A DNA stretch of 64,000 nt from an uncultured Acidobacteriaceae bacterium (GTDB lineage: Bacteria > Acidobacteriota > Terriglobia > Terriglobales > Acidobacteriaceae), in assembly GCA_963795845.1 (NCBI GenBank), contig CAWCJV010000017.1, positions 62,872 to 126,871 of the forward strand, in the 5' to 3' direction. Under the pieces are notes generated by a model. That model worked only from the letters and a program-made list of their open reading frames with translations, searched no databases and was not told the origin of the DNA. The translations under genes and the position numbers were made by a program. Position 1 is the stretch's first letter. Each line of letters opens with the position of its first letter. This document shows, in pieces, positions 10,937 to 41,337 of this stretch.

Positions 10937-10981
10937 AGGATTGAAACATGTCAGTAACAAGCTTCGTCGAGACTCCCAACT

Positions 10982-13390
10982 ATGAGTGATGGGCGTTGGG
11001 TACTTTTGATTGCCAGTGAATTGGGTGGTACGAACTCGGTGTCTGACCGGGCCATGGATCGCCTCTGCGGCGCGATTACGGAGGAGGGCTACGAAGTCAT
11101 CCGGACGTCAACGCCGGAGGATGGTCTATCCATGGTTCAATCCGACCCGTCGTACAGCGCGATTCTGCTGGACTGGGATCTGGAGCAGGAGCACCAGTTC
11201 GATGAACGCGCGGCGCTGAAGATTATTCGCGCTGTTCGGCGGCGGAACAAGAAAGTGCCGATTTTCCTGATCGCGGACCGTACTCTGGTCAGCGAACTGC
11301 CTTTGGAAGTGGTCAAGCAGGTTCACGAGTATATCCACTTGTTTGGCGATACCCCTGCGTTCATCGCCAACCGGGTGGACTTCGCCGTGAAGCGGTACGA
11401 CGAGCAGTTGCTGCCGCCGTATTTCCGGGAGTTGAAGAAGTACACGGATCAGGGGGCCTACTCCTGGGACGCGCCGGGGCACATGGGCGGAGTGGCTTTC
11501 CTGAAGCATCCGGTGGGCATGCAGTTCCATCGTTATTTCGGCGAGAATCTGCTGCGGGCCGACCTGGGAATCTCCACTTCCTCACTGGGCTCGTGGCTCG
11601 ATCATATTGGGCCGCCGGCGGAATCGGAGCGCAATGCAGCGCGCATCTTCGGCGCGGACTGGACTTTCTATGTGCTGAGCGGTTCTTCCACTTCGAACCA
11701 GATTGTCGGCCACGGAGTGATTGGTAACAATGACATGGTGTTGATCGACGCCAACTGTCACAAGTCGATCTGCCATTCGCTCACGGTCACGGGAGGACGT
11801 CCGGTTTACTTCAAACCTACCCGGAATGGTTACGGCATGATCGGCCTGGTGCCGTTGCGCCGCTTCTCTCCGGAGTACATCAAACAACTGATCGCCAATA
11901 GTCCCTTCAGCGCGGGGGCTGCGTCACCGGAACCGACTTATGCGGTGGTAACGAATTCGACCTATGACGGTTTTTGTTACGACGTGCAGCGGGTTACCAG
12001 TGAATTGGCGCGCAGTGTGCCTCGGGTGCATTTCGACGAGGCCTGGTATGCGTATGCAAAGTTCCACGCAATCTACCGGGGCCGCTTCGCCATGGATGTG
12101 CCCGAAGATATGCCCAATCGGCCGCTGCTGTTCGCAGTGCAGTCCACGCACAAGATGCTGGCGGCGTTTTCGATGGCGTCGATGATCCACGTGAAGCTAA
12201 GCGACCGGGCTCCCCTCGATTTCGATCAGTTCAACGAATCGTTCATGATGCACGGGACGACGTCTCCGTTTTATCCGATGATTGCGTCGCTCGACGTGGC
12301 CACGTCGATGATGGACGAGCCCGCCGGCCCGACGCTGATGTACGAGACGATTCAGGACGCGATCAGCTTCAGGAAAGCGATGTCTTCGATCGCGCACCGG
12401 CTGCGTTCCACCAACGGGGACGAATGGTTCTTCCGGATTTACCAGCCGGATACGGTTACGGACCCGACGACTGGAGCGACGTCTCTGTTTGAGGAGACTC
12501 CCGATTCGCTGCTGATCCACTCGCCGAATTGCTGGACGCTCAAGGGAGACGACGACTGGCATGGGTTCCGGAACGAGGACATTGCCGACGACTATTGCAT
12601 GCTTGACCCTACCAAGGTCACGATTCTCATGCCCGGTCTGAATTCACGCGGAGAGCTTTCGGATTGGGGGATTCCGGCGGCGATCCTGACTGAATTTCTC
12701 GATGCGCGGCTGGTAGAGATTGCCCGGACCGGCGACTACACGGCGTTGATCCTGTTTTCGGTGGGAACCAGTAAAGGCAAATGGGGCAGCTTGCTGGAAA
12801 CGCTGTTTGAGTTCAAGCGGCTCTACGATAACGACGGTACGCTGTACGAGGCATTGCCGGACCTGGTGGAGGAACATCCGCTGCGTTACCGGGACATGAC
12901 GTTAAAGGAACTGAGCGATGAGATGCATGCGGCCATGGTGCAGTTGAATCTGACCAACCTGCTGCACCAGGCCTGCGACGTGGATCCCGATCCTGTGCTG
13001 ACGCCGGCGCAAACGTATCAGAAGTTGATACGTAACGGGACGGAGAAGGTCAGGATTTCCGAGATGGCTGGGCGGTTGGCCGGGGTCATGCTGGTTCCCT
13101 ACCCTCCGGGTATTCCGGTGCGCATGCCCGGCGAGCGCATGGGTGATGCGGATAGTCCTATTATTCGGCTGTTGCTGGCGTTGGAGAAGTTTGGAAAGCA
13201 GTTTCCCGGGTTTGAGCGTGAGGTCCACGGGATTGAGTTGGGGGCCGACGGGGAGTACTGGATGCGGAGCGTGATTGAGTCGGCTGCTCCGGCGGCGAAT
13301 GGTAAGAAGGCCGCTTCGCCGGCTCGCAATACGAAGCGGCGGGCCAAGAAGGCGGTTGTTCCTGCTCCTGATCCTAAGGGAATGAGCTGA
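10982..13390 (+). CDS. Orn/Lys/Arg decarboxylase, large wing-domain (biodegradative-type) family, PLP-dependent
   Basis: 802 aa. The N-terminal wing domain (VLLIASELGG...ILLDWDL) and the PLP-lysine motif STHKMLAAFSMASMIH are present. There is a basic Lys/Ala/Pro-rich C-terminal tail. Confidence 0.8.
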   Translation: MSDGRWVLLIASELGGTNSVSDRAMDRLCGAITEEGYEVIRTSTPEDGLSMVQSDPSYSAILLDWDLEQEHQFDERAALKIIRAVRRRNKKVPIFLIADRTLVSELPLEVVKQVHEYIHLFGDTPAFIANRVDFAVKRYDEQLLPPYFRELKKYTDQGAYSWDAPGHMGGVAFLKHPVGMQFHRYFGENLLRADLGISTSSLGSWLDHIGPPAESERNAARIFGADWTFYVLSGSSTSNQIVGHGVIGNNDMVLIDANCHKSICHSLTVTGGRPVYFKPTRNGYGMIGLVPLRRFSPEYIKQLIANSPFSAGAASPEPTYAVVTNSTYDGFCYDVQRVTSELARSVPRVHFDEAWYAYAKFHAIYRGRFAMDVPEDMPNRPLLFAVQSTHKMLAAFSMASMIHVKLSDRAPLDFDQFNESFMMHGTTSPFYPMIASLDVATSMMDEPAGPTLMYETIQDAISFRKAMSSIAHRLRSTNGDEWFFRIYQPDTVTDPTTGATSLFEETPDSLLIHSPNCWTLKGDDDWHGFRNEDIADDYCMLDPTKVTILMPGLNSRGELSDWGIPAAILTEFLDARLVEIARTGDYTALILFSVGTSKGKWGSLLETLFEFKRLYDNDGTLYEALPDLVEEHPLRYRDMTLKELSDEMHAAMVQLNLTNLLHQACDVDPDPVLTPAQTYQKLIRNGTEKVRISEMAGRLAGVMLVPYPPGIPVRMPGERMGDADSPIIRLLLALEKFGKQFPGFEREVHGIELGADGEYWMRSVIESAAPAANGKKAASPARNTKRRAKKAVVPAPDPKGMS

Positions 13391-13717: not shown

Positions 13718-14767
13718 TCAGCGGGCTGCGTAGGATTTAGTCTGCCCGGTTCGCGAATTGAACATGGTGAAGCTGCCGTTGGGAGTGACGGTTAGCTTCA
13801 GGTAGTTGGCTGCATCGGGCCCTGTCGGGTTCGCGATGTACTCGGCTGCGGTGTTGTGGGTTCCGGCCTCGTCCGAGGTGTGGAGCTGCCAGAGCGTTTC
13901 AAGGCCGGGGGCTTTGGCGATGGTTTCGAAGGTCGGCGTGGAGCCGCCTTTTTTATTGCCGTTGTTCATGACCGCTATCCGCGGGGCTACCGCATCCACC
14001 AGTGCGGGGCTCGAGCTCTGGAACAATCCGTGATGTGAGACGACCAGGATGTCCACCTTGCCAACTTTGTTTACGGGGCACATGAGCTGCATTTCCCTGT
14101 CCCAGGTTAGATCGCCGAGATCGAGAATCCTGGTCTTGCCGAAGGTGAAAAGAGTCCCGAGCGAACGAGCATTGTCGGTCTTATCTTCGGGCCTGGTTTC
14201 TGATTGCTTGCAGTAGGCGTTCGGCTGCCCGGCGCCGGGCAGTGCGTGGTCGAGTAGCTCGCCGTTGGAGCTGATCACGACCGCCTTGATTCCCGGGATG
14301 GGTAAAGCGTCTCCGGGCTTGGGCGTTATATGGCCGTAGTGACCGTTGGCCAGCAGTTGCTGATAAGCCGGATACGCTTTTTTCGTGGAGGGATCAGTGG
14401 GGCTGTCGGGACCGTGATCGATGAACGTGCCTACCGGCATGCGCGCCAGGAGCTCGGGTAGACCGCCAATGTGGTCAGCGTGGTAGTGGGTGAACAGCAG
14501 ATAGTCGATCTTAGTCACGCCCGCGTCTTTGGCTGCGGCGACAATGCGGCCGGCGTCCAGGCCGTTGTTCCCTGCCCACCCGGTGTCGATCAGCAGCGAC
14601 TTCCCTGCCGGGGTGACAAAGAGCGTCGATTGCCCGCCGTCGACGTCGATGAAATAAACCTGCAAATCATGGCTCGCAGCCGTTGCCATGCGTGCGCTCA
14701 AAAGCAGCAGCCCGGCCAGAAGGATTGTCAGAAGATATTGCGTCTTTGATTTACGCACTGGGATCAA
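13718..14767 (-). CDS. MBL-fold metallo-hydrolase, secreted (ComEC-type beta-lactamase-like domain)
   Basis: The signal peptide is LLTILLAGLLLLSARMATAA. The HxHxDH motif (FTHYHADHIGG) and a later VVSHHG are present. Confidence 0.8.
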   Translation of the reverse strand: MIPVRKSKTQYLLTILLAGLLLLSARMATAASHDLQVYFIDVDGGQSTLFVTPAGKSLLIDTGWAGNNGLDAGRIVAAAKDAGVTKIDYLLFTHYHADHIGGLPELLARMPVGTFIDHGPDSPTDPSTKKAYPAYQQLLANGHYGHITPKPGDALPIPGIKAVVISSNGELLDHALPGAGQPNAYCKQSETRPEDKTDNARSLGTLFTFGKTRILDLGDLTWDREMQLMCPVNKVGKVDILVVSHHGLFQSSSPALVDAVAPRIAVMNNGNKKGGSTPTFETIAKAPGLETLWQLHTSDEAGTHNTAAEYIANPTGPDAANYLKLTVTPNGSFTMFNSRTGQTKSYAAR

Positions 14768-15788
14768 GCACCACCTTCATCAGATTTGGTTCGCCCGCGT
14801 GCAGCCGTTCAAACCAACGCGGGCCGTCCTCGAGCGGAGCAACCGCGGTGATCAGGGACTTCACTTTGATTTTTCCGTTGGCCAGCAATTCCATTGCCTG
14901 GGGATACTCGCCGGAGGAAGCACACGAGCCCTGGAGACGAATCTGCCGGGAGACCACTGCCTGCAGGGGAATTTTGATTTCGGGAGAGATATTGCCTATG
15001 AGCGTGACGGTCCCGCCCTTGCGTACGCTGGCAATGGAAGCGGCAATGGTTTCCTGGCGGCCGACGGCTTCGAGGACAAGGTCCACACCGCGGCCGCCGG
15101 TCTGACGAAGAATTTCCTGGACCAAGTCGTTTCCGGAAAGGAGCAGTGTTTCGTCGGCGCCGATATTTTTGGCTGTTTCCAGGCGGGTGCGATCGATATC
15201 CGCCACCAGCACCTTGGTGGCTCCCGCGGCCTTCGCCGCCTGCAGTGTCAACAAGCCGATCATGCCGGCTCCGATGACGAGAGCCGTCTCGCCACCCTTC
15301 ATTTCCGAGACGCGTACTGCGTGCAGCGCGACCGAGACGGCTTCAAGCATCGCCGCTTCTTTGAACTCGAGCGCTTCCGGCAGATGGTAAGCGATGCGTT
15401 GGGGCACCACGACGTACTCCGCGAAGGCGCCAGCGCGACGGTAGTCCCCGCAGGAAACCCCGACGACCTGGCGGTTGTTGCAGAGGTTGATCTCTCCTTG
15501 ACGGCAGAACTCGCACTCACCGCAATAGACCGTGGAATCGAAGGTCACCCGATCGCCGGCTTTGAATTTTTTCACGCCGGAGCCAGTCGAGGCTACGACT
15601 CCCGCCGCTTCATGCCCCATGACGATAGGTGGAATTCGCCTGCCGGAGGTGCCGTCGTAGCCATGAACGTCGCTACCGCAGATGCCACAGGCGGCCACAC
15701 GCACCAGAATCTCGTCCGGACCAGGCTCAGGAGCGGGAAGATCGGCAATGTCAAGCTGGTTATATTGCGAAAGGAGCAGTGCTTTCAT
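14751..15788 (-). CDS. Zn-dependent medium-chain alcohol/polyol dehydrogenase
   Basis: Motifs GICGSDVHGYDG, GHEAAGVV, CGECEFCRQG and the Rossmann VIGAGMIGL are present. The likely start is MKALLLSQ at 15788. The 3' end overlaps the MBL gene start by 17 nt. Confidence 0.85.
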   Translation of the reverse strand: MKALLLSQYNQLDIADLPAPEPGPDEILVRVAACGICGSDVHGYDGTSGRRIPPIVMGHEAAGVVASTGSGVKKFKAGDRVTFDSTVYCGECEFCRQGEINLCNNRQVVGVSCGDYRRAGAFAEYVVVPQRIAYHLPEALEFKEAAMLEAVSVALHAVRVSEMKGGETALVIGAGMIGLLTLQAAKAAGATKVLVADIDRTRLETAKNIGADETLLLSGNDLVQEILRQTGGRGVDLVLEAVGRQETIAASIASVRKGGTVTLIGNISPEIKIPLQAVVSRQIRLQGSCASSGEYPQAMELLANGKIKVKSLITAVAPLEDGPRWFERLHAGEPNLMKVVLDPSA

Positions 15789-15873
15789 AGAAGGTAAGGG
15801 TACATGGTTGGTAGCCGCATCCTCAAGCAAGGGGTGGGCAAGCCATGTACGATAGTTCTATCGCCGGACCCCC

Positions 15874-17265
15874 ATGAGTACACGCAGTCTTAAACGCAGA
15901 CTGATTGCAGGATTCGGCGCCAATTCCTTCAGCCGCCTCTCCACCACACTCACCCAGATTTTTTCGGTTCCGGTGTTCCTCAGCCACTGGGGCGTGCACC
16001 TTTACGGCGAGTGGATCCTGCTGAATACCATTCCCAGTTACCTAGGCCTTAGCGACGTGGGGTTCGGCAGCGTTGCCGGCAACGAGATGACGATGCTGGC
16101 GGCGGCACAGGATTTCGATCAGGCCCTGGTGGTTTTCCAGAGTGTCTGGGTGCTGACCACCGTCATCACCAGCTTGCTCGGCCTGCTGCTGATTGCGACG
16201 GTGTGGGTGCTCCCCTTGGGAGCGTGGCTACACATGCATTCCATCAGCGGAGGGGATGCCAGGCTGATTGTGTTGCTGCTCGGTCTCGCGGTCCTGCTGG
16301 GCATGCAGGAGACCTTGTTTCAGGCGGCTTTTCGTTGCGTGGGCAAATATCCGCTAGGGACCATGGCGAAGAGCGTGGTAGTGCTAGCGGCGTTCTTGAG
16401 CACGATGGTTGGGGTAGGGCTGCACCTGGGACCGGTTCCGGTTGCGGTGCTGTATGTGGCGGTGAACGCGGTGGGGGTCTTTGCTCTCTGGATTCTTCTC
16501 AAGCGCGAGGTGCCGTGGATCCGGTTCGGCGTCCGGCATGCGCAATGGGCGGTGATCCGGAGGCTCACCGGCCCAGCGATTTCGTTTATGAGCTTTCCGC
16601 TGGTGAATGCTTTGAACCTGCAGGGCATCCTGGTGGTGATTGGTTATGTGATGGGCCCGATCGCGGTGGTCACGTTCAATACGGCGCGGACGATCTCGCG
16701 CAGCGCGGCGCAAGGGATGAACCTGATCAACAATTCGATATGGCCGGAGATGTCCGCGGCCTTTGGGATAGGCGCTATGGATGTCGCTCGGATGCTCCAC
16801 CGGCGGGCTTGCCAGATTTCCCTGGTGCTGTGCCTGAGTATCACCCTGGGGGTCGCTTTTCTGGGGGATTGGATTTGGAAGATCTGGACGGTGGGGAAGG
16901 TCCCGACGGATCCTGTGCTGCTGAACATCATGCTGTTGCAGATGGTGATTTCGGCGTTCTGGTTCACCAGTTCGGTGGTGCCGATGGCGATCAACCAGCA
17001 CCAGAGAATGGCGCGGGCTATGTTAAGTGCTACCTGCGTGGCGCTAGGGCTCGCCTGGGTGTTGATGCATGTTCCGGCGCTTGGCTTGCGCGGAGCGGCG
17101 ATTGCGTTGGTGGCAGGGGATTTGTTTACGGCGTTTTATGTGTTGCGGGAGAGTTTGCGGTTGCTGGATGACCACCTGGGCGAGTTTGCGCGGAGCCTGA
17201 TGGATTTGTCGCTGCTGCAGCGGTTCTGGAGACGGCCTAAGGTGGCGTTGGGTAATGAGGAGTAG
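15874..17265 (+). CDS. polysaccharide/oligosaccharide flippase, MOP (Wzx-like) superfamily membrane protein
   Basis: 463 aa and highly hydrophobic with about 12 predicted TM segments. The N-terminus (LIAGFGANSFSRLSTTLTQIFSVPVFLSHWG..YGEW) is typical of Wzx-like flippases. Confidence 0.65.
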   Translation: MSTRSLKRRLIAGFGANSFSRLSTTLTQIFSVPVFLSHWGVHLYGEWILLNTIPSYLGLSDVGFGSVAGNEMTMLAAAQDFDQALVVFQSVWVLTTVITSLLGLLLIATVWVLPLGAWLHMHSISGGDARLIVLLLGLAVLLGMQETLFQAAFRCVGKYPLGTMAKSVVVLAAFLSTMVGVGLHLGPVPVAVLYVAVNAVGVFALWILLKREVPWIRFGVRHAQWAVIRRLTGPAISFMSFPLVNALNLQGILVVIGYVMGPIAVVTFNTARTISRSAAQGMNLINNSIWPEMSAAFGIGAMDVARMLHRRACQISLVLCLSITLGVAFLGDWIWKIWTVGKVPTDPVLLNIMLLQMVISAFWFTSSVVPMAINQHQRMARAMLSATCVALGLAWVLMHVPALGLRGAAIALVAGDLFTAFYVLRESLRLLDDHLGEFARSLMDLSLLQRFWRRPKVALGNEE

Positions 17266-25805: not shown

Positions 25806-26579
25806 ATGCCCTCCGCCCAACATCTTCGAGCCCAGATTGAAGCCAACCTAGCGGAAAGAATCCCTTCGGCACTCACTCCGCTGGCGCGAGTTCCCTCCCC
25901 GGTTGCGCCTAGTGGTATTTGTGAGATCGATGCTTTGCTAAGTGGCGGATTTCCTGTAGGCGCGCTCAGCGAAATTGTTGGGCCGGAATGTTCCGGACGT
26001 ACTTCGCTGGCACTCTCATTCGTGGCCGCGATGACCAAGGAAGGCAAAGTATGTGCGTGGGTAGATGTTTCCGACACGCTGCACCCTGAGTCCGCAGCGG
26101 CCATTGGAGTGGAACTCACGAGGCTCTTGTGGATACGCTGTGGCGTAATTCATGGCACTGCACCTTTGCGTAAAGTGTGGTCGCGCCTGGAGCAAGCACT
26201 CAAGGTGAGCGATCTACTACTGCAGGCAGGCGGCTTTAGTTGCATAGTGCTGGATATGGGCAGCCTGCCTGCGGAATATGCCTTGCGCGTGCCCCTGGCA
26301 ACCTGGTTTCGCTTTCGTGCCGCGGCCGAGCGTTTACAAGCCAACGTATTGTTGCTGACGCAACACGCTTGCTCCAGGAACAGCGCCGGCCTGGTGCTTC
26401 ATCTAACCCCGGGAAGCTTGCTCGACCGCGAGTCGACTGTGTTTACCGGCCTTGAACATAAGGCGGAGTTAACCCGGCAGCGCTTTCCCCAGGACAAGGT
26501 ACTTCCCTTGCGGAAGCAGCCACAAAGCGTGCAAAGGGCAGAATGGCAGGCCAGAACGGTTTGGTCAGGGTGCAGATGA
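25806..26579 (+). CDS. imuA: ImuA-like RecA-fold protein of the mutagenesis cassette
   Basis: 257 aa with ICEIDALLSGGFPVGALSEIVGPECSGRTSLAL, a degenerate RecA/SulA-like P-loop. It sits immediately upstream of imuB and dnaE2. Confidence 0.8.
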   Translation: MPSAQHLRAQIEANLAERIPSALTPLARVPSPVAPSGICEIDALLSGGFPVGALSEIVGPECSGRTSLALSFVAAMTKEGKVCAWVDVSDTLHPESAAAIGVELTRLLWIRCGVIHGTAPLRKVWSRLEQALKVSDLLLQAGGFSCIVLDMGSLPAEYALRVPLATWFRFRAAAERLQANVLLLTQHACSRNSAGLVLHLTPGSLLDRESTVFTGLEHKAELTRQRFPQDKVLPLRKQPQSVQRAEWQARTVWSGCR

Positions 26580-28087
26580 CTACGCCGATTGCACGCTACG
26601 CATGCCTCGATGCAAAAGAATTTCCGCTGCAGGCTTTGTTGCGCTTACGCCCAGAATTGCGGCGCAAACCGGTAGCCGTATTCGATGGGGAATCTCCATT
26701 CGAACAAGTGTGCTCGCTCAATGAGCCTGCTTTGATCCTGGGAATCGCCCTGGGTATGACAAAACTGGAAATGGAGATGTTTCCTACGGCGGTTGTATTG
26801 CACCGATCGCGTACAGAGGAAGCAGCGGCGCGTACAGCCTTGCTGGGGTGTGCCGGAGCCTTCTCCCCATGGGTGGAAGATCAGAGCAGTGATCGTTACT
26901 TTACCTGTGTCATCGATATTGCCGGAACCGAATCGTTATTTGGCTCCCCGGATGCATTGGGCGAAAGTCTGCTGAAAAAGACAAAGGCTCTTGGTATACA
27001 AGCAACGATTGCGATCAGCAGCAACTTTCATGCCGCCCGTTGCCTGGCACGGGGCCACTGCAGCACTGGTGTTCGCGTGATACCAAGGGGAATGGAATGT
27101 GCCGTACTCGCCCCTTTGCCGCTCACGGTGCTCGATCTTTCTCCGGAGCATACGGAAACGTTCTCGATGTGGGGCATCACCACCCTCGGGGCCCTGGGCA
27201 AACTGGCAGAAACAGAATTAATCGCCAGGCTGGGACAAGCAGGCAAAGAGATACGCCTGCTGGCACGTGGTGAATCGCCGCATTTGTTTACCGCTATTGA
27301 AGAAAACTTTGCGCTGGAAGAACGAATAAACCTGGATGCGCCGGTAGAATTGCTCGATTCCTTGCTTTTCATTTTGGGCGTGATGCTCGATCAGTTGATG
27401 GTGCGGGCCCAGGCACACATACTTGCGCTCGCCTCCGTTACTCTCCATCTAGGACTGGAAGGTGGCACTGAACACTCCCGAACAGTTCGCCCCGCACTTG
27501 CCAATATCGATCGGAAACTATGGCTGAAGCTTATCCACCTGGACCTGCAGGCATATCCTCCCCAAGCCGCTATCTTGTCGCTACGCTTGAGTGCAGAACC
27601 AGGCAGCACCAGCAAAGTGCAACTGGGACTGTTTTCTCCCCAGGTGCCGGAGCCCATGCGACTGGATGTAACCCTAGCCAGGATTCGCAGTATCGTCGGC
27701 GAGGGCTGCGTGGGCCAGGCGGTACTCAAGGACACGCATCGCCCGGATGCTTTTCGTATGGAGCCGTTTGTTGTGCCGGCTGCGACTGCAAGTGATAAGA
27801 AGGCGGGAACCGGACGGCTGGCCATGCGCCAGCTACGGCCGCCGGAAATAGTCCATGTAAAAGTACATGACCGGCAACCTGGTTCATTTGTTTTCCGGGA
27901 GAAGCGCTACACCGTCGAGCGTGCTTATGGCCCGTGGGCTTGTGCGGGAGATTGGTGGAATCCTACGCTCTGGTCGCTCGAACAGTGGGACCTGGTGGCC
28001 AAGGCTCATGACTCTGCCTCACTTTGTTGTTGCCTGACGCGTGATCTTATGCAGGATCGTTGGCAGATCGAGGCTCTGTATGACTGA
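26576..28087 (+). CDS. imuB: ImuB, Y-family DNA-polymerase-like protein
   Basis: The N-terminus is ARYACLDAKEFPLQALLRLRPEL, with UmuC-like palm and little-finger regions. The ATG at 26576 overlaps the imuA stop (ATGA). Confidence 0.85.
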   Translation: MTTPIARYACLDAKEFPLQALLRLRPELRRKPVAVFDGESPFEQVCSLNEPALILGIALGMTKLEMEMFPTAVVLHRSRTEEAAARTALLGCAGAFSPWVEDQSSDRYFTCVIDIAGTESLFGSPDALGESLLKKTKALGIQATIAISSNFHAARCLARGHCSTGVRVIPRGMECAVLAPLPLTVLDLSPEHTETFSMWGITTLGALGKLAETELIARLGQAGKEIRLLARGESPHLFTAIEENFALEERINLDAPVELLDSLLFILGVMLDQLMVRAQAHILALASVTLHLGLEGGTEHSRTVRPALANIDRKLWLKLIHLDLQAYPPQAAILSLRLSAEPGSTSKVQLGLFSPQVPEPMRLDVTLARIRSIVGEGCVGQAVLKDTHRPDAFRMEPFVVPAATASDKKAGTGRLAMRQLRPPEIVHVKVHDRQPGSFVFREKRYTVERAYGPWACAGDWWNPTLWSLEQWDLVAKAHDSASLCCCLTRDLMQDRWQIEALYD

Positions 28088-31000
28088 GCACTATATCGAA
28101 CTGCATGCCGCCAGCGCATTCAGCTTTCTTGAAGGCGCCTCTCTGCCGGAAGATCTTATTCAGCGGGCTGCGGAGTTGGATATGCCGGCTATGGCTCTGC
28201 TGGACCGCAATGGTGTATACGGAGCGGCGCGTTTTCACACCCTGGCCCATAAGCACGGCGTGCGCGCCCATGTTGGAGCGGAGATTGCTGTATCGAATCT
28301 GGGCAGGCGGCTCACACCTCCGGGATGGGTGCCGCATCAATATGCTCCTGAACCAGTGCGGCTGCCCCTTTTATGTGCATCACGCATTGGGTATCAGAAT
28401 CTGTGTCAATTGATTACCAAGTTCAAGATGCGGGAGACCACCAAGACCGAAGGCGCCGCCACGCTCGAAGACCTGGAAGAGTTTTCTGCGGGGCTTGTTT
28501 GCCTCACGGGGGGAGAGGAGGGTCCGCTGGCAGCCGCCCTGATGCGTGGGGGTGAAGCGGAAGCAGTGAAAGTTACAGAAAAACTTATCCGGCTCTTTGG
28601 ACGGGAAAATGTGTTTATCGAACTTCAGCGTCATGGCGAGCGGGAGGAAGAGTGGCGCAACCAGGCTGCGCTCGCTATTGCCCAGCGCTTGAGATTGCCT
28701 TTGCTGGCTACCAACGGCGTGCGCTATGCAAAGGCTTACGACCGGGAAATCCTCGATGTTTTTACGACGATCCGCCACCATACCAACCTGGAGCAGGCGG
28801 GCCGTCTGTTGAGTGTTAACCAGCAACGCCACCTGCGCCATGCGCAGGAGATGACCGCCAGGTTTAGCGACCTTCCTCTGGCGATTAAGCACACCGTTGC
28901 CTTGTCTGAGCGGCTGGAATTCGAATTGAATGATCTGGGGTATGAATTTCCCCGCTATCCGGTTCCTGCAGGCGAAACCATGGATAGCTTTCTCCGCAGG
29001 CTTACCGCAGAAGGGGTCTTGAAGCGATACGGGGCCAAGCACAACCGGAGTTTATTGGAAAAAGCGCAAAAGCAGGTGGAGCACGAGCTCGCATTGATTG
29101 AGAGATTGGGCTTTGCCGGTTATTTTCTGATCGTGTGGGACCTGATCGATTTCTGCAGGAAGAACGACATATTAGTGCAAGGCCGGGGGAGTGCTGCAAA
29201 TTCAGCTGTGTGTTATGCGCTGGAAATCACCGCGGTGGATCCTGTCGGCATGGACTTGTTGTTCGAACGCTTCCTGAGCGAAAGCCGCGGTGAATGGCCC
29301 GATATTGATCTGGATCTGCCCTCCGGAGATAAACGCGAGCAGGCGATTCAGTACATCTATACCCGCTACGGAGAGCTTGGGGCCGCCATCACAGCCAACG
29401 TGATTACGTATCGCGGCAAGTCGGCGTCGCGGGAGGTGGGCAAGGCCATGGGCTTCGATCCTGAAACGCTGGGACGGTTATCCAGCCTGGTTTCGCAGTG
29501 GGAATGGAAAGGAAAGAACGACACGCTGGAACATTCTTTTCTGCATGCCGGCTTTGATGTGAAGCATGCCCACATCCACAAGTTTCTCGAGCTTTGCATG
29601 CGGATACAGGATCTGCCGCGTCATCTTGGACAACATTCGGGAGGGATGGTGATCTGCCAGGGCCAGTTGGATCATGTGGTGCCGCTGGAACGATCCTCCA
29701 TGCCTGGGCGAACAGTGGTGCAGTGGGATAAGGAAGACTGTGCCGACCTGGGCATCATCAAAGTGGATTTGTTGGGTCTGGGGATGATGGCAGTCATCCA
29801 GAACTGCCTGGACCTGGTCACGCAGCATTACGATGAGCCAGTTGATCTGGCGCGGCTACCGCAGGATCCTGTGGTCTACAAAACCTTACAGGTGGCAGAT
29901 ACCGTGGGCATGTTTCAGGTGGAGAGCCGGGCACAAATGGCTTCCTTGCCTCGCAACAAGCCGGATAAGTTTTATGACCTGGTGGTGCAGGTGGCCATCA
30001 TCCGGCCGGGCCCGATCGTGGGCAAGATGATGCACCCGTACATGCGTCGGCGGCAGAAAAAAGAGGAAGTAACTTATCCGCATCCTTCGCTGGAGCCAGT
30101 GCTGAAGCGGACGCTGGGCGTTCCTCTTTTTCAGGAACAGCTGTTGCGCATGGCAATGACGGTGGCGGATTTTTCAGGGTCGGAAGCAGAGGAGTTGCGG
30201 CGCGCTGTGGGCATGCGCCGTTCATGGCAACGAATGGAGCAACTGGAAGTGAAGCTGCGTACCGGCATGACGAAAAATGGCCTGAATGCAGCCACCCAGG
30301 ACAATATTATTCAGAACATTACTTCCTTCGCGCTTTATGGCTTTCCTGAATCGCATGCCGCCAGCTTCGCGTTGATTGCGTATGCTTCTGCGTATTTCAA
30401 GGTGCGATACCTGGCTGCGTTCACCTGCGCCATTCTCAACAATCAGCCGATGGGGTTTTATTCGCCTGCAGTGCTGGTTAAGGATGCGCAGCGGCATGGG
30501 CTGCGGATACGGCCCATTGACGTGCAGGTTTCGCAATGGTTATGTACGGTGGAGCATGAGAATAATGGTGAGCGCTCCGTGCGCCTGGGGCTTTTGTATG
30601 CCAAGGGGTTACGACAGGACGTAGGGGAAGCAATCGTCGAGTCACGAAATCGGACAGGATTGTTTTGTTCCGCAGTGGAACTTACCCGGCGTGTGCCCTT
30701 GCTGCAGCGCAAGGAGCTTACGCTGCTGGCCCGCATCGGGGCTCTGAATTGCCTGGATGGCATCGATCATCGTCGCGATGCTGTTTGGCAGGTGGAAGAG
30801 GCGGTGCGGCCGGTGGGCCCTTTGCTGAAGCCGCATCATGGGCAGCAGGTGGTTTCTTCGCCCCTACAGCAAATGACTACGGACGAGAGGTTGAGTGCGG
30901 ACTATTCCGGCACTGGGCTGACGGTGGGGAAACATCCGTTGCACTATCGCCGCCGCGAGCTACAGGCTATGAAGGTGCTGACATCAGCGGAGTTGCGAAA

Positions 31001-31289
31001 TTACCAGGATGGACAGTATGTGCGCTCAGCCGGTTGCGTGATTGCGCGGCAACGCCCCGGGACGGCTAAGGGTTTCATTTTTATTTCCATGGAAGATGAG
31101 ACGGGGATTGCGAATGTCATTATTACTCCCGATCTTTATGAGCGGGAGCGGGTGGTGGTGACTCGTAGCAAATTTATTTTGGTGGAGGGGGCGCTGCAGA
31201 ATCAGGATGGGGTGATTCATATCAAGGCCAAACGGATTGAGAATTTGGCTTTCAGTAATCTGGAGGTTCGGTCACACGATTTTCATTAG
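28080..31289 (+). CDS. dnaE2: error-prone DNA polymerase III alpha-like subunit
   Basis: The PHP N-terminus is YIELHAASAFSFLEGAS. Further matches include GRGSAANSAVCYALEIT, IDLDL, and KVDLLGLGMM with VADTVGMFQVESR, plus a C-terminal OB region. The start overlaps the imuB stop by 8 nt. Confidence 0.92.
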   Translation: MTEHYIELHAASAFSFLEGASLPEDLIQRAAELDMPAMALLDRNGVYGAARFHTLAHKHGVRAHVGAEIAVSNLGRRLTPPGWVPHQYAPEPVRLPLLCASRIGYQNLCQLITKFKMRETTKTEGAATLEDLEEFSAGLVCLTGGEEGPLAAALMRGGEAEAVKVTEKLIRLFGRENVFIELQRHGEREEEWRNQAALAIAQRLRLPLLATNGVRYAKAYDREILDVFTTIRHHTNLEQAGRLLSVNQQRHLRHAQEMTARFSDLPLAIKHTVALSERLEFELNDLGYEFPRYPVPAGETMDSFLRRLTAEGVLKRYGAKHNRSLLEKAQKQVEHELALIERLGFAGYFLIVWDLIDFCRKNDILVQGRGSAANSAVCYALEITAVDPVGMDLLFERFLSESRGEWPDIDLDLPSGDKREQAIQYIYTRYGELGAAITANVITYRGKSASREVGKAMGFDPETLGRLSSLVSQWEWKGKNDTLEHSFLHAGFDVKHAHIHKFLELCMRIQDLPRHLGQHSGGMVICQGQLDHVVPLERSSMPGRTVVQWDKEDCADLGIIKVDLLGLGMMAVIQNCLDLVTQHYDEPVDLARLPQDPVVYKTLQVADTVGMFQVESRAQMASLPRNKPDKFYDLVVQVAIIRPGPIVGKMMHPYMRRRQKKEEVTYPHPSLEPVLKRTLGVPLFQEQLLRMAMTVADFSGSEAEELRRAVGMRRSWQRMEQLEVKLRTGMTKNGLNAATQDNIIQNITSFALYGFPESHAASFALIAYASAYFKVRYLAAFTCAILNNQPMGFYSPAVLVKDAQRHGLRIRPIDVQVSQWLCTVEHENNGERSVRLGLLYAKGLRQDVGEAIVESRNRTGLFCSAVELTRRVPLLQRKELTLLARIGALNCLDGIDHRRDAVWQVEEAVRPVGPLLKPHHGQQVVSSPLQQMTTDERLSADYSGTGLTVGKHPLHYRRRELQAMKVLTSAELRNYQDGQYVRSAGCVIARQRPGTAKGFIFISMEDETGIANVIITPDLYERERVVVTRSKFILVEGALQNQDGVIHIKAKRIENLAFSNLEVRSHDFH

Positions 31290-33849: not shown

Positions 33850-33955
33850 AGTTGATTAAAACATTTCTCAGCTTGCTCCCAAAAGGGGAGGGGTTGCGAA
33901 CGCCACCCCTGGTGCCCACGTGCTCATGGAGATGCGCGGTAGACTGAGAAGCAGA

Positions 33956-36900
33956 ATGACCGCATCTGAATCCGGAACTATCGCGGTTCTGGCCGAAAAA
34001 CCTTCGGTCGCGCGTGACATCGCCCGCGTGCTCGGAGCCGACAAACGAGGGACCGGCTACCTGCAAGGAAACGGCTACGTGGTGACCTGGGCCATTGGGC
34101 ACCTGGTCTCGTTAGCGGAGCCGCACCAGATCAATCCCCAGTGGAAGCAATGGAGGCTGGAGTCGCTGCCGATTCTGCCCGACCAGTGGCCGCTGGTGGT
34201 CTACGAGCGCAGCAAAGAGCAGTTCGAAGTGGTGCAGAAGATACTCCAGTCTCCGCGCGTGTCGAGCATCGTGTGCGCGACGGATGCGGGGCGTGAAGGG
34301 GAGCTGATTTTCCGTTATATCTACGAGGCGGCGAAGAGTAAGAAGCCTTTCAGCAGGTTGTGGATTTCCTCACTGACCCCAGACGCGATCCGCAGAGGGT
34401 TTTCAAGCCTTCGGCCGGGGAGCGACTACGACCGGCTGGCGGACGCCGCCTGCGGACGCAGCCGGGCCGATTGGCTCGTCGGGATGAACCTTTCTCGCGC
34501 ATATTCGATCGTCTACAACGAGGAGCTTTCCGTGGGCCGGGTGCAGACGCCGACACTGGCCATGATCGTCGAACGGGAACTGGCTCTGCGCAGCTTCGTA
34601 CCCGAGGATTACCTGCACGTCGTAGCGACTTTCCAGGCGGCGGAAGCCGCGGAAACGTATGACGGCACCTGGTTCCGGCTTGAAGTCAAAAGCAACGAGA
34701 GCAGCCGGTTGGCCGCCGATGGCCTGGAAGCTGAGCAGATCATGGCACGGGCTCGCGTGGGCAAAGCCGCAATCGAGTCGCTTACCGCGGAGACTGTGCG
34801 TACGCCGCCTCCCCTGCTGTACGATCTGACGGATCTGCAGCGGCATGCCAACCGTCTTTACGGCTTCAGCGCACAAAGGACGCTTGATCTGGCCCAGGCG
34901 CTGTATGAACAGCACAAACTCATCAGCTACCCACGCACCGACAGCCGCCACCTTTCGACGGATATCGCGGCCACGATTCCCAGGATCGTTGAGGTTATTT
35001 CCAGCCGCTACCAGGAGCACCTGGCTCCGGGAACCGGGGAACGCGCCCTGGGCAAGCGTTACGTGGACGACAGCAAGGTCAGCGATCACCACGCGATTAT
35101 TCCTACCGCGGTCACCATGCAACCAGACCGGCTTTCTGATGAGGAAAGCAAGATCTACGACCTGGTTTGCCGGCGACTGCTGATGTTGTGGCATGCGGAC
35201 CACCTGCAGGAAGTGACCACGGTGATTACGGCGATCCGGACGGCAACGGGACCTGTCGTGGACAGGTTCCGCACCACGGGCACAGTAGTGCGGCAAATTG
35301 GCTGGAAAGTTCTTGACCCTGGAGCAGATGCCCGCCGGCGCGATGCGCGGAACGAAGTAGCCGATGAGTCATTGCCGGCAACGCTCGCTGAAGGTCAGGC
35401 GCAGAACGTAACCAAGATAGAAGCGCAAAAGAAGAAGACCCGGCCGCCGCAACGGTTCACCGATGCGACCATCCTGACCGCTATGCAGACGGCGGGCAAG
35501 AGTCTGGACGAGAAAGAGCTATCGGACGCGATGAAGGAGACCGGGCTGGGCACCCCTGCCACGCGGGCGGCCATCATCGAAGTGCTCTTGAAGCGGGGCT
35601 ACATCACGCGAAGCGGCAAGAGCCTCGAGGCCACTGACAAAGGAATACACCTGATCGAGGTTGTACATCCGGAAGTGAAGAGCCCGGCAATGACCGGGCA
35701 ATGGGAAGCATTTCTCAATCGTATCCAGCACGGTGAAGCGCAGTTGGATCCCTTCTTAGAACGGATCAGCGACTACGTTCGCTCGGTGGTGGGCCGGGTG
35801 AGTCAAACGACGCCCGTGGCGCGGGCCGGTGCTGCCCGGGTTGCAGAATCCGCCGCGGAGCCGGCGAGCAGCAGAGAAGTTCCTGCGGCAAAAGTGATTC
35901 CCAGCAACGCCAGCCTCAACCAACTGCTGGAAAGCGTCTTCGGGTTTTCGAGCTTCCGCCCCAACCAGGAGGCGGTCTGCCGGTCGGTGACCGCGGGCGA
36001 AGACGCGCTGCTGGTAATGCCGACCGGTTCGGGCAAGTCGCTCTGCTATCAGTTGCCGGGATTGGCGCGCGGGGGAACGACGCTGGTCATTAGTCCGTTG
36101 ATCGCTTTGATGGATGACCAGGTGGGCAAGCTGAAGCGCCTCGGCCTGGCTGCCGAGTGCATCCACTCTGGCCGTGATCGGGAAAGTTCCCGGCAGGCTT
36201 GCGTGGATTACGTGAAGGGTAACCTTCAGTTTTTATTCATCGCTCCGGAGCGGTTGCGTGTGCCGGGTTTTCCCGAGCTGCTGGCGAAACGCAAGCCCTC
36301 GTTGATCGCCATCGACGAGGCGCATTGCATCTCGCAATGGGGGCACGACTTTCGCCCGGACTACCGCATGCTGGGCCAGTACCTGCCGAGTTTCCGGCCC
36401 GCGCCGGCGTTGGCCCTGACTGCGACCGCGACCCCGCTGGTGCAGAAGGACATCGCGACGCAACTCGGGCTGTCCACGGTCAAGCATTTTATCCATGGCT
36501 TCCGCCGGGAGAATATCGGCATCGAGATTGTGGAGGCGCTGCCTTCCCATCGGCCTGGGTTGGCCAGGGCGATCCTGCTTGAGGCCGGCAATCGCCCGGC
36601 GATTGTGTACACACCCACCCGCAAACAGGCGGAAGCCTTGTCTACGGAGTGGGCGCGTGAGTTTCGCGTGGCGGGCTACCATGCCGGCCTCGACGCCAAT
36701 CGCCGGCGGCGGGTGCAAGAGGAGTTCATGACCGGCAAGCTGGACGTTATGGTCGCCACCACGGCCTTTGGGATGGGCATTGACAAAGCCGATGTCCGCA
36801 CCGTGATTCACACCGCGGTTCCCGGCAGCCTGGAAGGCTACTACCAGGAGATTGGCCGCGCAGGGCGAGATGGAAAGCCCAGCCGGGCGATCCTCATGTA

Positions 36901-37951
36901 CTCCTATGCGGACCGTCACACGCACGATTTTTTCATCGGCCGGGACTACCCGCCGGTCGCGTTGCTGGATCGAATTTTTTTGAAGCTACGCGAACAACCG
37001 CAAAGCAAGGATGCGGTGCGCAAACTGGCGAAGATGGATGAGGATGTCTTTGATAAGGCTCTCGAAAAACTATGGATTCACAAGGGCGCCTTGGTGGACT
37101 TTGCGGAGAACGTAAGTCTTGGCGTGGACAACTGGAGGGGTTCCTACACTCTGCAGGCGGATCAGAAAAAAGATCAACTGGAAGAAATCATCCGCTATGC
37201 AGAGGGCCATCACTGCCGCATGAAATCCCTGGTCCACCATTTTGGGGATACTTCCGACACCGGCGCAGGCTGCGGGATGTGCGATTTTTGCGCACCGGTG
37301 GATTGTATTGCGCAGAAATTCCGCTCACCTACGCATGCGGAACGAATCGCCTGCGACCAGGTTCTCAAAAAGCTGCGTGGGATTTCTGCCAGGTCCACAG
37401 GGAAGCTGCATACTGACCTTTACCCTGATGGCGAGATGAGCCGGGATGATTTTGAAGAGGTTTTGGGAGCGATGGCCCGGGGGGAGTTGATCGCGTTTAC
37501 CGAGGCGGTGTTTGAGACCCAGGGGAAGCGAATTCCCTACCGCAACGTCAGCATTTTGCCAGCCGGGCTCAGCTTCCATGAGAGTGAAGCTCATCGGTTC
37601 GTGATGCGTGATACGGTGGCTCCTTCAGCGGCTGACAAACGAGGGAAAAAACTTAAGTTCGCGGAGTCTTCAAAGCCAACGCGAGGCAGGTTCGCGAAGT
37701 CATCATCGGGTGAGTCCGCGCCGCCGGAGCGGCAGGCGCGCCTCGAGCAGGCATTGCGGGCCTGGCGGTTGAATGAGGCGAAACGGAGAAAGATGCCGGC
37801 GTTTCGCATCTTTGGCGATCGAACGTTGCGGAATATTGCGAGTTCGTGCCCGAGGACGGATTCCGACTTCCTGGCGGTGCCTGGGATTGGCATGGGCACC
37901 GTGGAAAAATATGGCGCCCAGATCTACCACTTGATTGAAAGCGCGGAGTAA
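33956..37951 (+). CDS. fusion protein: DNA topoisomerase III (type IA) N-terminal half + RecQ-family DNA helicase C-terminal half
   Basis: One uninterrupted ORF (track 33920-37951).
- TopB part: AEKPSVARD, WAIGHL, DAGREGE, and catalytic Tyr in LISYPRTDSRHL (codon 34928-34930).
- RecQ part: FRPNQ, MPTGSGKS, DEAH (36314-36325), LTATAT, QEIGRAGRDG, the Cys cluster CRMK..GCGMCDFC, and an HRDC-like tail.
- The likely start is ATG at 33956. Confidence 0.85.
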   Translation: MTASESGTIAVLAEKPSVARDIARVLGADKRGTGYLQGNGYVVTWAIGHLVSLAEPHQINPQWKQWRLESLPILPDQWPLVVYERSKEQFEVVQKILQSPRVSSIVCATDAGREGELIFRYIYEAAKSKKPFSRLWISSLTPDAIRRGFSSLRPGSDYDRLADAACGRSRADWLVGMNLSRAYSIVYNEELSVGRVQTPTLAMIVERELALRSFVPEDYLHVVATFQAAEAAETYDGTWFRLEVKSNESSRLAADGLEAEQIMARARVGKAAIESLTAETVRTPPPLLYDLTDLQRHANRLYGFSAQRTLDLAQALYEQHKLISYPRTDSRHLSTDIAATIPRIVEVISSRYQEHLAPGTGERALGKRYVDDSKVSDHHAIIPTAVTMQPDRLSDEESKIYDLVCRRLLMLWHADHLQEVTTVITAIRTATGPVVDRFRTTGTVVRQIGWKVLDPGADARRRDARNEVADESLPATLAEGQAQNVTKIEAQKKKTRPPQRFTDATILTAMQTAGKSLDEKELSDAMKETGLGTPATRAAIIEVLLKRGYITRSGKSLEATDKGIHLIEVVHPEVKSPAMTGQWEAFLNRIQHGEAQLDPFLERISDYVRSVVGRVSQTTPVARAGAARVAESAAEPASSREVPAAKVIPSNASLNQLLESVFGFSSFRPNQEAVCRSVTAGEDALLVMPTGSGKSLCYQLPGLARGGTTLVISPLIALMDDQVGKLKRLGLAAECIHSGRDRESSRQACVDYVKGNLQFLFIAPERLRVPGFPELLAKRKPSLIAIDEAHCISQWGHDFRPDYRMLGQYLPSFRPAPALALTATATPLVQKDIATQLGLSTVKHFIHGFRRENIGIEIVEALPSHRPGLARAILLEAGNRPAIVYTPTRKQAEALSTEWAREFRVAGYHAGLDANRRRRVQEEFMTGKLDVMVATTAFGMGIDKADVRTVIHTAVPGSLEGYYQEIGRAGRDGKPSRAILMYSYADRHTHDFFIGRDYPPVALLDRIFLKLREQPQSKDAVRKLAKMDEDVFDKALEKLWIHKGALVDFAENVSLGVDNWRGSYTLQADQKKDQLEEIIRYAEGHHCRMKSLVHHFGDTSDTGAGCGMCDFCAPVDCIAQKFRSPTHAERIACDQVLKKLRGISARSTGKLHTDLYPDGEMSRDDFEEVLGAMARGELIAFTEAVFETQGKRIPYRNVSILPAGLSFHESEAHRFVMRDTVAPSAADKRGKKLKFAESSKPTRGRFAKSSSGESAPPERQARLEQALRAWRLNEAKRRKMPAFRIFGDRTLRNIASSCPRTDSDFLAVPGIGMGTVEKYGAQIYHLIESAE

Positions 37952-40327: not shown

Positions 40328-40353
40328 CGGCTTGCGCCGGCGGGAGAGTGCAG

Positions 40354-41337
40354 ATGTCGCGTAGCCTGCTTGTATTACCTGACGACTCCGCCAAGCCGAT
40401 TCTGGACGCCATCAAGCATGCGACCAAGTCGCTGCGCATCAAGATGTTCGTCTTTACAGATCCCTCGCTGATCACGGCCGTAATCGAGGCACATCGCCGA
40501 GGGGTTGTGGTGCGCGTCATGCTCAATCCCAAGCGGCGTAATGGGGTCTCGGAAAACGATGAAAGCCGCGCCACGTTAGCGGCCGCAGGCATTGACGTGC
40601 TGGACAGTAATCCGGCCTTTGACCTGACGCACGAGAAATCCATGGTGGTGGATGACAAGACGGCGTTTGTGAAATCGCTGAACTGGCAAAGCGAGAACCT
40701 GACGGAAACCCGGGATTATGCCGTCATCACCTCAGACCCGCATGAGGTTACGGAGATCATCAACTGCTTCGAGGCAGACTGGAGCCGCCAGGATTTTGCT
40801 TCTGGAAAACAAGCGCAGTTGATCTGGTGCCGCGGCAATGGCCGGGAGCGGATTACCGAGTTCATCGACAGTGCCAAGCACTCGCTATGGTTACAGAACG
40901 AACGATACCAGGACCAGATGATTATCGAGCACCTGGTGCGGGCCAAGGAGCGCGGAGTCAAGGTTCACGTGATGGCGCGTCCGCCGCACACGCTAAAGAA
41001 GGAGAAACTGCTCGAGGGTGTCGGCGGCCTGCGAATCCTGAACGATGTCGGGGTGGAGGTGCGCAAGCTGAAGGGGCTCAAACTCCACGCCAAGATGCTG
41101 CTGGCTGATGGAGAGCGCGCGGTGATCGGATCCATCAACCTGGCGCCGGGCAGTTTCGACAGCCGGCGCGAATTGGCAATCGAGGTCAGCGACAAACATA
41201 TCGTTGATCGTTTGCATGACGTTGTTCGCCATGACTGGAAGCATTCCCACACGCTTGACCTGTCGGACAAAGGTTTGTTGGCCGATCTGGAAAAGCACGG
41301 CGGCAAAGGGATTGAAGAGCTCGGATTGGATGGGTAG
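40354..41337 (+). CDS. phospholipase D-superfamily protein with two HKD motifs
   Basis: HKD1 is LTHEKSMVVDDKTAFVKSLN and HKD2 is KLHAKMLLADGERAVIGSINL. There is no TM or signal peptide. It starts 24 nt after the ABC gene. Confidence 0.8.
   Translation: MSRSLLVLPDDSAKPILDAIKHATKSLRIKMFVFTDPSLITAVIEAHRRGVVVRVMLNPKRRNGVSENDESRATLAAAGIDVLDSNPAFDLTHEKSMVVDDKTAFVKSLNWQSENLTETRDYAVITSDPHEVTEIINCFEADWSRQDFASGKQAQLIWCRGNGRERITEFIDSAKHSLWLQNERYQDQMIIEHLVRAKERGVKVHVMARPPHTLKKEKLLEGVGGLRILNDVGVEVRKLKGLKLHAKMLLADGERAVIGSINLAPGSFDSRRELAIEVSDKHIVDRLHDVVRHDWKHSHTLDLSDKGLLADLEKHGGKGIEELGLDG

Follow-up and report, generated by a model that had tools for sequence, protein, structure and literature searches.

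Background

RecQ helicases and type IA topoisomerases cooperate in organisms from bacteria to humans. According to one survey of type IA enzymes, Escherichia coli topoisomerase III (Topo III, or TopB) works with RecQ on Holliday junctions and on converging forks (PMC2647321), and the N-terminal 250 residues of Sgs1 bind Top3 (PMC3905885). The abstract of PMC13244152 describes the in vivo role of the bacterial partnership between RecQ and type IA topoisomerases as 'poorly defined'. Reverse gyrase has been called the unique fusion of helicase and topoisomerase units (2020 PNAS paper, PMC7245102). We examined a gene in a 64,000-nucleotide stretch of DNA from an uncultured Acidobacteriaceae bacterium (GenBank assembly GCA_963795845.1, contig CAWCJV010000017.1, positions 62,872 to 126,871 of the forward strand). 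This whole stretch is referred to below as the window, and positions are counted from its first letter. A first-pass annotation, made from the letters of the window, had proposed that the gene joins a complete Topo III to a complete RecQ helicase. The gene is confirmed as a natural two-module enzyme in which topoisomerase III is covalently joined to a RecQ helicase, and our confidence in this architecture (Topo III, linker and RecQ in one polypeptide) is very high.

One reading frame encodes both enzymes

The forward strand is open for 1,343 codons, from a GTG at 33920 to the stop codon at 37949-37951, in agreement with the uninterrupted open reading frame (ORF) described by the first-pass annotation. 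Translation likely starts at the ATG at 33956, because an identical public protein begins there; this 1,331-residue product is a called gene on a 224,640-bp NCBI contig. All residue numbers are counted from this ATG. The motifs listed in the first-pass annotation were each found at the coordinates that it had given (Table 1). No stop codon or frameshift was found in this gene or in the uninterrupted orthologues of other assemblies.

Pfam detected Toprim, Topoisom_bac, DEAD, Helicase_C, RecQ_Zn_bind and HRDC domains in the protein, each above its gathering cut-off. The corresponding 90%-identity cluster has 140 members; those that are named come from Acidobacteriaceae and are called 'DNA topoisomerase III'. 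The database name of the protein itself is 'DNA topoisomerase 3' only.

The topoisomerase III half

Residues 11-620 were confirmed, on profile, alignment and fold evidence, as a complete TopB-type topoisomerase III, as had been claimed for the first ~620 residues. Curated topB cut-offs were passed (TIGR01056, 612 vs 516 bits; NF005829, 703.5 vs 597 bits), and this half aligned to residues 5-611 of the 653 in E. coli Topo III with an E-value of 1e-98. The Toprim residues E14, K15, D110, E114 and E116 were invariant in 45 close orthologues and were kept in 38-39 of 39 diverse full-length fused proteins (32-88% identical to the query), all of which also had the catalytic Tyr325. A Lys right after the first Toprim Glu is a Topo III signature, according to a 2024 review (PMC10969213). 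The fusion protein carries this Lys, as E14-K15.

Foldseek matched the predicted structure to the four-domain toroidal fold of Topo III (1d6m and 2o19) with a template modelling score (TM) of 0.85-0.89 and a root-mean-square deviation of ~3.3 A. Identity in the fold alignment was 32-33% to E. coli Topo III, compared with 21% to human TOP3A. One segment aligned with residues 502-519 of E. coli Topo III, which are established, in identity and in role, as the decatenation loop of that enzyme. In the sequence alignment its length is nearly that of E. coli, with a one-residue offset at the C-terminal edge. The C-terminal tail of E. coli Topo III (~40 residues, about 612-653) is absent, and the linker stands in its place. 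The N-terminal module is thus predicted to be an intact type IA enzyme, active in single-strand cleavage and passage.

The RecQ half

Residues 655-1326 were confirmed in the same manner as a complete RecQ-family helicase, and the full RecQ claimed for the second half was borne out by Pfam, motifs, family model and fold. Motifs 0, I, II (DEAH), III and VI of superfamily 2 (SF2) were located, and their residues were invariant in close orthologues. The helicase core aligned to residues 4-344 of E. coli RecQ with an E-value of 1e-88. Four cysteines, Cys1087, Cys1106, Cys1109 and Cys1112, aligned with Cys380, Cys397, Cys400 and Cys403 of E. coli RecQ and were kept in all 39 diverse fused proteins. 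The C-terminal tail, earlier described as HRDC-like, scored above the Pfam cut-off for HRDC.

The RQC winged helix had no Pfam match in the fusion protein. When a family profile of the region after the helicase core was compared with PDB sequences, it found the zinc module only and no winged helix. In the structural model the winged helix appears to be present by its predicted fold while invisible to sequence methods.

The RecQ-family model TIGR00614 (recQ_fam) was passed (379 vs 220 bits), and the E. coli-type recQ equivalogs scored below their cut-offs (TIGR01389, 485 vs 640 bits; NF008279, 387 vs 1015 bits). The protein is therefore a RecQ-family member and not an E. coli-type equivalog; by these sequence comparisons its RecQ half falls into a divergent subtype of 'long' RecQs. 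This half carries an insert between the helicase core and the zinc site, in which the model shows an alpha-alpha-alpha-beta-beta unit at residues 1001-1055 that may be winged-helix-like. The ~65-residue insert is common to fused and to stand-alone long-type RecQs, and no sequence-family match to it was found. The C-terminal module is predicted to be an intact RecQ-family 3'-5' helicase.

The linker and the question of an internal start

The Ala/Ser/Pro-rich linker proposed earlier is present and is predicted to be disordered in the model. We measured the linker in 17 fused proteins as the segment from the last topoisomerase helix to the first RecQ helix. Its length ranged from 22 to 120 residues and its Ala/Pro/Ser-rich sequence was not conserved, in contrast to the domain edges on either side. 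A fused orthologue from a Polyangiaceae genome (L025, 9185-13975; stop-to-stop ORF of 1,597 residues) has a linker of 120 residues, made up mostly of tandem 'AAPAVARGA'-like repeats.

The first-pass annotation also held that the helicase cannot be translated on its own, as neither a Met nor a Shine-Dalgarno (SD) sequence precedes it. This argument goes too far. A GTG codon in frame at 35894 (Val647) lies at the position expected for the start of a stand-alone RecQ. Moreover, an SD-like core was found upstream of only one of 11 nearby gene starts (positions 24000-45000), a rough count that used mechanical longest-ORF starts, and the ATG of the fusion gene lacks one as well. These counts suggest mostly SD-independent initiation in the source organism. 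With 10 of the 11 starts lacking an SD sequence, its absence at the RecQ N-terminus proves nothing. A stronger case against an internal start comes from the orthologues, among which Val647 is not conserved and the hypervariable linker holds no conserved internal start.

Predicted structure

The accepted AlphaFold model was built with an alignment of 62 diverse sequences (32-88% identical to the query) and spans residues 1-1200. Because the model ends there, the HRDC assignment comes from Pfam. The mean predicted local distance difference test score (pLDDT) was 92.6, with 1,009 of the 1,200 residues at 90 or above, and values below 50 were confined to residues 1-5 and 623-641. Structure prediction, which had been suggested as a check, thus returned both modules with confidence and a disordered linker. 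A run based on the 45 close orthologues, none of them below 72% identity to the query, reached a pLDDT of 47.5 and was discarded.

In a Foldseek search against the PDB, the top match was E. coli Topo III (the TM range given above, target-normalised, over ~630 columns). Next came the RecQ catalytic core 1oyw/4tmu (516 residues comprising helicase, zinc module and winged helix), with a TM of 0.73-0.75 over ~550 columns. No reverse gyrase structure was among the best 50 matches. By profiles, motifs and fold, neither half of this protein is degenerate.

Table 1. Features of the fusion gene and its product, with positions in the window
Feature	Positions	Strand	Basis or remarks
Complete fusion gene	33956..37951	+	1,331 codons and a stop codon; the identical public protein begins at ATG 33956
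Motifs confirmed in the topoisomerase half	AEKPSVARD 33992-34018; DAGREGE 34283-34303; Tyr TAC 34928-34930; GLGTPATRAAIIEVLLKRGY 35543-35602	+	Sequence
Toprim domain, aa 11-139	33986..34372	+	Pfam PF01751; E14, K15, D110-x-G-x-E114-x-E116
Type IA core, domains II-IV, aa 158-601	34427..35758	+	Pfam PF01131 Topoisom_bac, E 1e-110
Catalytic Tyr325, codon TAC	34928..34930	+	Aligns with E. coli Topo III Tyr328
Decatenation-loop equivalent, aa ~512-529	35489..35542	+	Alignment to E. coli Topo III 502-519
Inter-module linker, aa ~621-652, Ala/Pro/Ser-rich	35816..35911	+	Predicted disordered; pLDDT <50 at 623-641
Motifs confirmed in the RecQ half	FRPNQ 35954-35968; MPTGSGKS 36017-36040; DEAH 36314-36325; LTATAT 36416-36433	+	Sequence
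Further motifs confirmed in the RecQ half	QEIGRAGRDG 36845-36874; Cys cluster 37214-37291	+	Sequence
RecQ lobe 1, aa 668-826	35957..36433	+	Pfam DEAD; motif 0 FRPNQ, Walker A K694, DEAH 787-790, motif III
RecQ lobe 2, aa 874-973	36575..36874	+	Pfam Helicase_C; motif VI QEIGRAGRDG
Subtype-specific insert, ~65 extra residues, aa ~986-1067	36911..37156	+	Gap in the E. coli RecQ alignment
RecQ zinc module, aa 1068-1112	37157..37291	+	Pfam PF16124 RecQ_Zn_bind, 38 vs 25 bits
RQC winged helix, aa ~1127-1199	37334..37552	+	Predicted fold only, alpha-alpha-alpha-beta-beta
HRDC domain, aa 1260-1326	37733..37933	+	Pfam PF00570, E 3e-19, 69 vs 23.8 bits, profile positions 1-67 of 68

Conservation and spread of the fused form

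Related genomes keep the fused architecture: hundreds of independent assemblies from various projects, spread over several phyla, carry an uninterrupted fused ORF, and the orthologues are not uniformly two genes. The best 120 matches in a collection of 5.8 billion proteins all had both halves, at 68-92% identity. Most were 1,305-1,379 residues long, and six shorter ones (1,092-1,249 residues) covered 80-93% of the query. They came from JGI, ENA and NCBI assemblies and, where the organism was named, from Acidobacteriaceae, Terriglobia and Ca. Sulfotelmatobacter. When 1.84 billion 50%-identity representatives were searched exhaustively with HMMER, 18,366 relatives were obtained at E <= 1e-30. 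Both halves were present in 63 of the 150 best of these representatives, with identities to the query down to 34%. Among species-representative genomes, uninterrupted fused ORFs were found in Solibacteraceae, Bryobacterales, Terriglobia, Thermoanaerobaculia and Polyangiaceae, in one Oligoflexus metagenome-assembled genome (MAG) and in one 'proteobacterium' MAG; a fused copy in Myxococcaceae is cut by the end of its contig. The phyla with uninterrupted copies thus include Acidobacteriota and Myxococcota.

Both active sites are maintained in this spread. Active-site residues of the two halves were invariant across the 45 close orthologues. In the 39 diverse fused members, Tyr325, D110, E114, E116 and the four zinc cysteines were present without exception, and the helicase motifs were retained in 36-38. 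Mean pairwise identity among fused proteins was 45% for one half and 44% for the other, and the pairwise distances of the two halves were correlated (r = 0.80, Mantel 0/2000). A fusion that is intact across several phyla and keeps both active sites is strong Rosetta-stone evidence that, in bacteria, both activities work simultaneously on a shared substrate, and supports the earlier view of the gene as a Rosetta-stone fusion of two complete activities.

Two fused relatives, P0183 (1,205 residues) and P0212 (1,193 residues), have the Walker A Lys replaced by Arg or Ala and an altered DEAH motif. Pfam DEAD fell below its cut-off in P0183 and had no match in P0212. Both proteins retain the topoisomerase Tyr and the four zinc cysteines.

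In four MAGs, all labelled 'MFD', the fusion gene is broken. One copy (L008) has a single frame change, in the linker, and the other three (L010, L029 and L033) have at least four, in both halves. We read these breaks as assembly indel errors and not as gene boundaries, because they are spread over both halves in three of the four copies and all four are in 'MFD' MAGs. Gene-content statistics derived from these MAGs call for caution.

The two modules also occur apart. Stand-alone 'long' RecQs of ~680-730 residues, 50-56% identical over the entire helicase half, are found in other Acidobacteriaceae, in Polyangiaceae, in Ktedonobacteraceae and in other MAGs, and a stand-alone TopB ~50% identical to the topoisomerase half exists. 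Among the 80 loci kept, in a weak comparison based on a pattern-based scan of incomplete MAGs, the fused gene and a stand-alone long RecQ never occurred together in an Acidobacteriota MAG, each having one or the other. One Polyangiaceae MAG has both (L025, fused; L028, stand-alone long-type RecQ). On a less likely reading, the fused gene may take the place of a separate RecQ in its host lineages, to which the fused-or-stand-alone pattern in Acidobacteriota lends weak support. A neighbour-joining tree built from the RecQ halves was star-like, and its fused and unfused labels were confounded by fragment representatives, as were the nearest-neighbour counts. Since this tree was unresolved, we drew no inference from it on single or multiple origins of the fusion.

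The long-type RecQ subtype seems to have entered fusions repeatedly. In another protein (P0234, 1,400 residues), a long-type RecQ with DEAD, Helicase_C, zinc and HRDC domains lies behind an N-terminal Ser/Thr kinase and nine Sel1 repeats, with no topoisomerase.

Comparison with described systems

The fusion shares with E. coli RecQ plus TopB (with SSB) the two enzyme families, the catalytic Tyr, the loop region and the four zinc cysteines. The E. coli proteins are separate and their genes unlinked, whereas the fusion is one polypeptide. Its RecQ half differs from E. coli RecQ in the ~65-residue insert, in a winged helix seen by fold only and in a score below the equivalog level, and its topoisomerase half differs from TopB in that the linker replaces the C-terminal tail (about 612-653).

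In the Sgs1-Top3-Rmi1 and BLM-TOP3A-RMI1/2 complexes, as in the fusion, the type IA topoisomerase is located at the N-terminal end of the helicase. Sgs1 binds Top3 non-covalently, whereas the fusion is natural, bacterial and covalent, and its topoisomerase is of the TopB type. No RMI1-like OB-fold partner was recognisable among the neighbours in the window. Bennett and Wang reportedly described, in PNAS in 2001, that function was restored when Top3 was fused to an N-terminally truncated Sgs1. Those engineered proteins reportedly have the topoisomerase at the same helicase end as the natural fusion.

In reverse gyrase, too, a single chain holds a type IA topoisomerase together with an SF2 ATPase. 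The domain order of the fusion is the opposite, and its helicase is a full RecQ with zinc module, winged helix and HRDC. The two domains of reverse gyrase have an intimate fixed interface, whereas the linker of the fusion is flexible and hypervariable. The hosts of the fusion are also taken to be mesophiles, as they belong to soil-type lineages. The published status of reverse gyrase as the unique helicase-topoisomerase fusion (PMC7245102) is qualified by this protein.

In Listeria monocytogenes the same functions are linked in an unfused recQ-topB pair on one strand, with 23 nucleotides between the genes. Their order, recQ then topB, is the opposite of that in the fusion, and the Listeria RecQ is of ordinary length (~590 residues). 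This pair (L083, 3980-7929) lies on NZ_LR134400.1, a 594-kb record classed as a non-mobilizable 'plasmid'. Since it carries housekeeping genes such as guaB, this record looks chromosomal. A Muribaculaceae MAG (L031, 9989-16603) has a topB-like gene (9989-12076) and a recQ-like gene (14681-16603) on the same strand, 2.6 kb apart and unfused.

No description of a natural Topo III-RecQ fusion was found in open-access full text, although an earlier mention elsewhere is possible, and a targeted reading of two surveys of type IA topoisomerases (PMC2647321, PMC10969213) revealed none. The first-pass annotation was aware of no characterised example, and in this literature it was right; the fused architecture is, however, not rare in databases. 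The PADLOC model PDLC02865, named 'DpdF' (1,499 positions), matched both halves of the fusion with 1,620 bits. As this model spans both halves, a public resource had grouped proteins of this architecture by 2023. Names such as 'DNA topoisomerase 3' and PADLOC 'DpdF' conceal the helicase half or imply a role in defence. The enzymes and their partnership are thus already known; what apparently lacks characterisation is their natural, widely conserved fusion.

Proposed function and alternative explanations

By analogy with its separate counterparts, the protein would be a single-chain RecQ-Topo III strand-passage enzyme for decatenation or dissolution, a reading to which we assign a probability of about 0.7. 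It would act in the mode of separate E. coli RecQ and Topo III, with the addition that the two modules would always be present 1:1 and in the same place. The RecQ module would bind branched or partly duplex DNA and, driven by ATP, unwind it or migrate the branch, which would yield single-stranded DNA, the substrate required by a type IA topoisomerase. Topo III on its tether would then pass strands through this RecQ-made single-stranded DNA, so that hemicatenanes, converging forks or double Holliday junctions would be unlinked without crossovers. In SF2 3'-5' helicases the unwound strand exits on the lobe-1 (N-terminal) side, and we therefore infer that a tether at the helicase N-terminus would put Topo III beside fresh single-stranded DNA. 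The 'dissolvasome' activity itself we infer from the known partnership of RecQ and Topo III.

Several observations weigh against this proposal. The predicted template modelling score (pTM) of the model was only 0.59, which supports no defined interface between two modules that are themselves well defined; their mutual placement is undefined, and on the model the coupling may be nothing beyond tethering. The degenerate ATPase motifs of P0183 and P0212 indicate that in some lineages the helicase module may be a mere DNA-binding appendage. The ~65-residue insert, the winged helix seen by fold only and the sub-cut-off equivalog scores mark a divergent long RecQ subtype, whose substrate preference may differ from that of E. 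coli RecQ. Finally, no second type IA topoisomerase gene or RecQ gene was found in the 64-kb window, a result that applies to the window and not to the genome.

It is unlikely that the covalent fusion confers an activity absent from the separate enzymes, such as an ATP-driven, directional and processive strand-passage motor. An emergent activity of this kind may take the form of a reversed-order, mesophilic counterpart of reverse gyrase or of a self-sufficient double-Holliday-junction dissolvase independent of both SSB and an RMI1-like factor. We regard as distinctly improbable the related explanation that the protein is a mesophilic analogue of reverse gyrase in reverse order, in which the ATPase unwinds DNA locally and the type IA enzyme relaxes the underwound part only, with positive supercoiling or directional processive passage as its ATP-driven topology activity instead of dissolution. 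Both proteins do carry an SF2 ATPase and a type IA topoisomerase on one chain. However, the two modules come in the opposite order, the NCBIfam model of reverse gyrase (TIGR01054) scored 111 vs 472 bits and matched the topoisomerase part only, and reverse gyrase is missing from the best 50 fold matches. In addition, the helicase is a complete RecQ with zinc module, winged helix and HRDC, and the linker is disordered and hypervariable in length where reverse gyrase has a fixed interface. The notion that the gene is a mobile-element Topo III, from a conjugative plasmid or an integrative conjugative element, that acquired a helicase and works in DNA transfer and not in the upkeep of the chromosome earns very little credence from us. 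Plasmid-borne Topo III is known (PMC2647321), and at least 5,000 plasmid records matched the query, 3,857 of them conjugative; these matches are stand-alone Topo III relatives. Yet among plasmid and phage records none had one place that covered at least 80% of the query, and the records that touched both halves were from Listeria only, the annotated one having two adjacent genes. The neighbours of the fusion gene are also housekeeping genes whose synteny is conserved in relatives.

Gene context largely refuted an identity as DpdF of the Dpd 7-deazaguanine DNA-modification and anti-phage defence system, which we consider extremely unlikely. PDLC02865 was indeed the best PADLOC match, over both halves. 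The curated NCBIfam model NF041063, however, reached 216 vs 550 bits, and none of 10 neighbouring proteins matched a Dpd component. The neighbourhood is one of housekeeping and metabolic genes, with synteny kept on chromosomal contigs of megabase scale, and orthologues at ~60% identity share no neighbours. Other PADLOC 'DpdF' models (~610 positions) scored high on the RecQ half alone, so the label is over-inclusive. There is, lastly, hardly any likelihood that the fusion is an artefact, with two genes merged by an assembly or sequencing error or with the helicase made from an internal start. The in-frame GTG at 35894, the general lack of SD sequences here, which makes a missing one no bar to internal initiation, and the four related MAGs with the gene in frame-shifted pieces would all fit such a pseudo-fusion. 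Against it stand the uninterrupted ORF in hundreds of independent assemblies, the restriction of broken copies to 'MFD' MAGs, three of the four with at least four frame changes across both halves, and a linker of 22-120 residues without a conserved start, in which Val647 is not conserved.

A single-chain RecQ-Topo III strand-passage enzyme would confirm, and not overturn, an established principle. The protein offers a natural RecQ-Topo III of ~145 kDa, and it is a good structural and biochemical target. As a single chain whose stoichiometry is fixed and which has no accessory subunits, it would suit the study of how translocation is coupled to strand passage by cryo-electron microscopy and single-molecule methods.

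Genomic context

Downstream of the fusion gene are an ABC transporter, a PLD-family protein, an amidohydrolase and a metallophosphatase. The PLD-family protein (329 residues with two HKD motifs, 40348-41337, forward strand) is encoded two genes downstream and has modest matches to PADLOC DrmC of the DISARM system. These matches are probably generic to the domain, as no other DISARM component is nearby.

Upstream, at a distance of 2.7 kb, is a mutagenesis cassette on the forward strand (25806-31289). It consists of imuA-like (RecA-fold, 257 residues), imuB-like (Y-family/IMS, 514 residues) and dnaE2-like (1,082 residues) genes. An aminotransferase and a PALP plus ACT enzyme are encoded on the reverse strand between the cassette and the fusion gene. 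The motif GTTC-N7-GTTC, the presumed LexA box of Acidobacterium capsulatum, had two matches in the window against 2.1 expected, none of them near the fusion gene or the cassette. A scan for promoters and terminators around the fusion gene gave counts no better than those of shuffled sequence.

The order of the neighbourhood, including the adjacency of the cassette, is kept in relatives whose identity is 81-86% (L081 and L082, on contigs of 1.2 and 3.6 Mb), and orthologues at ~60% identity have no neighbours in common with it. Synteny that is kept at 81-86% and lost at ~60% indicates that this chromosomal gene is stable and self-contained and that no operon partner is conserved beside it.

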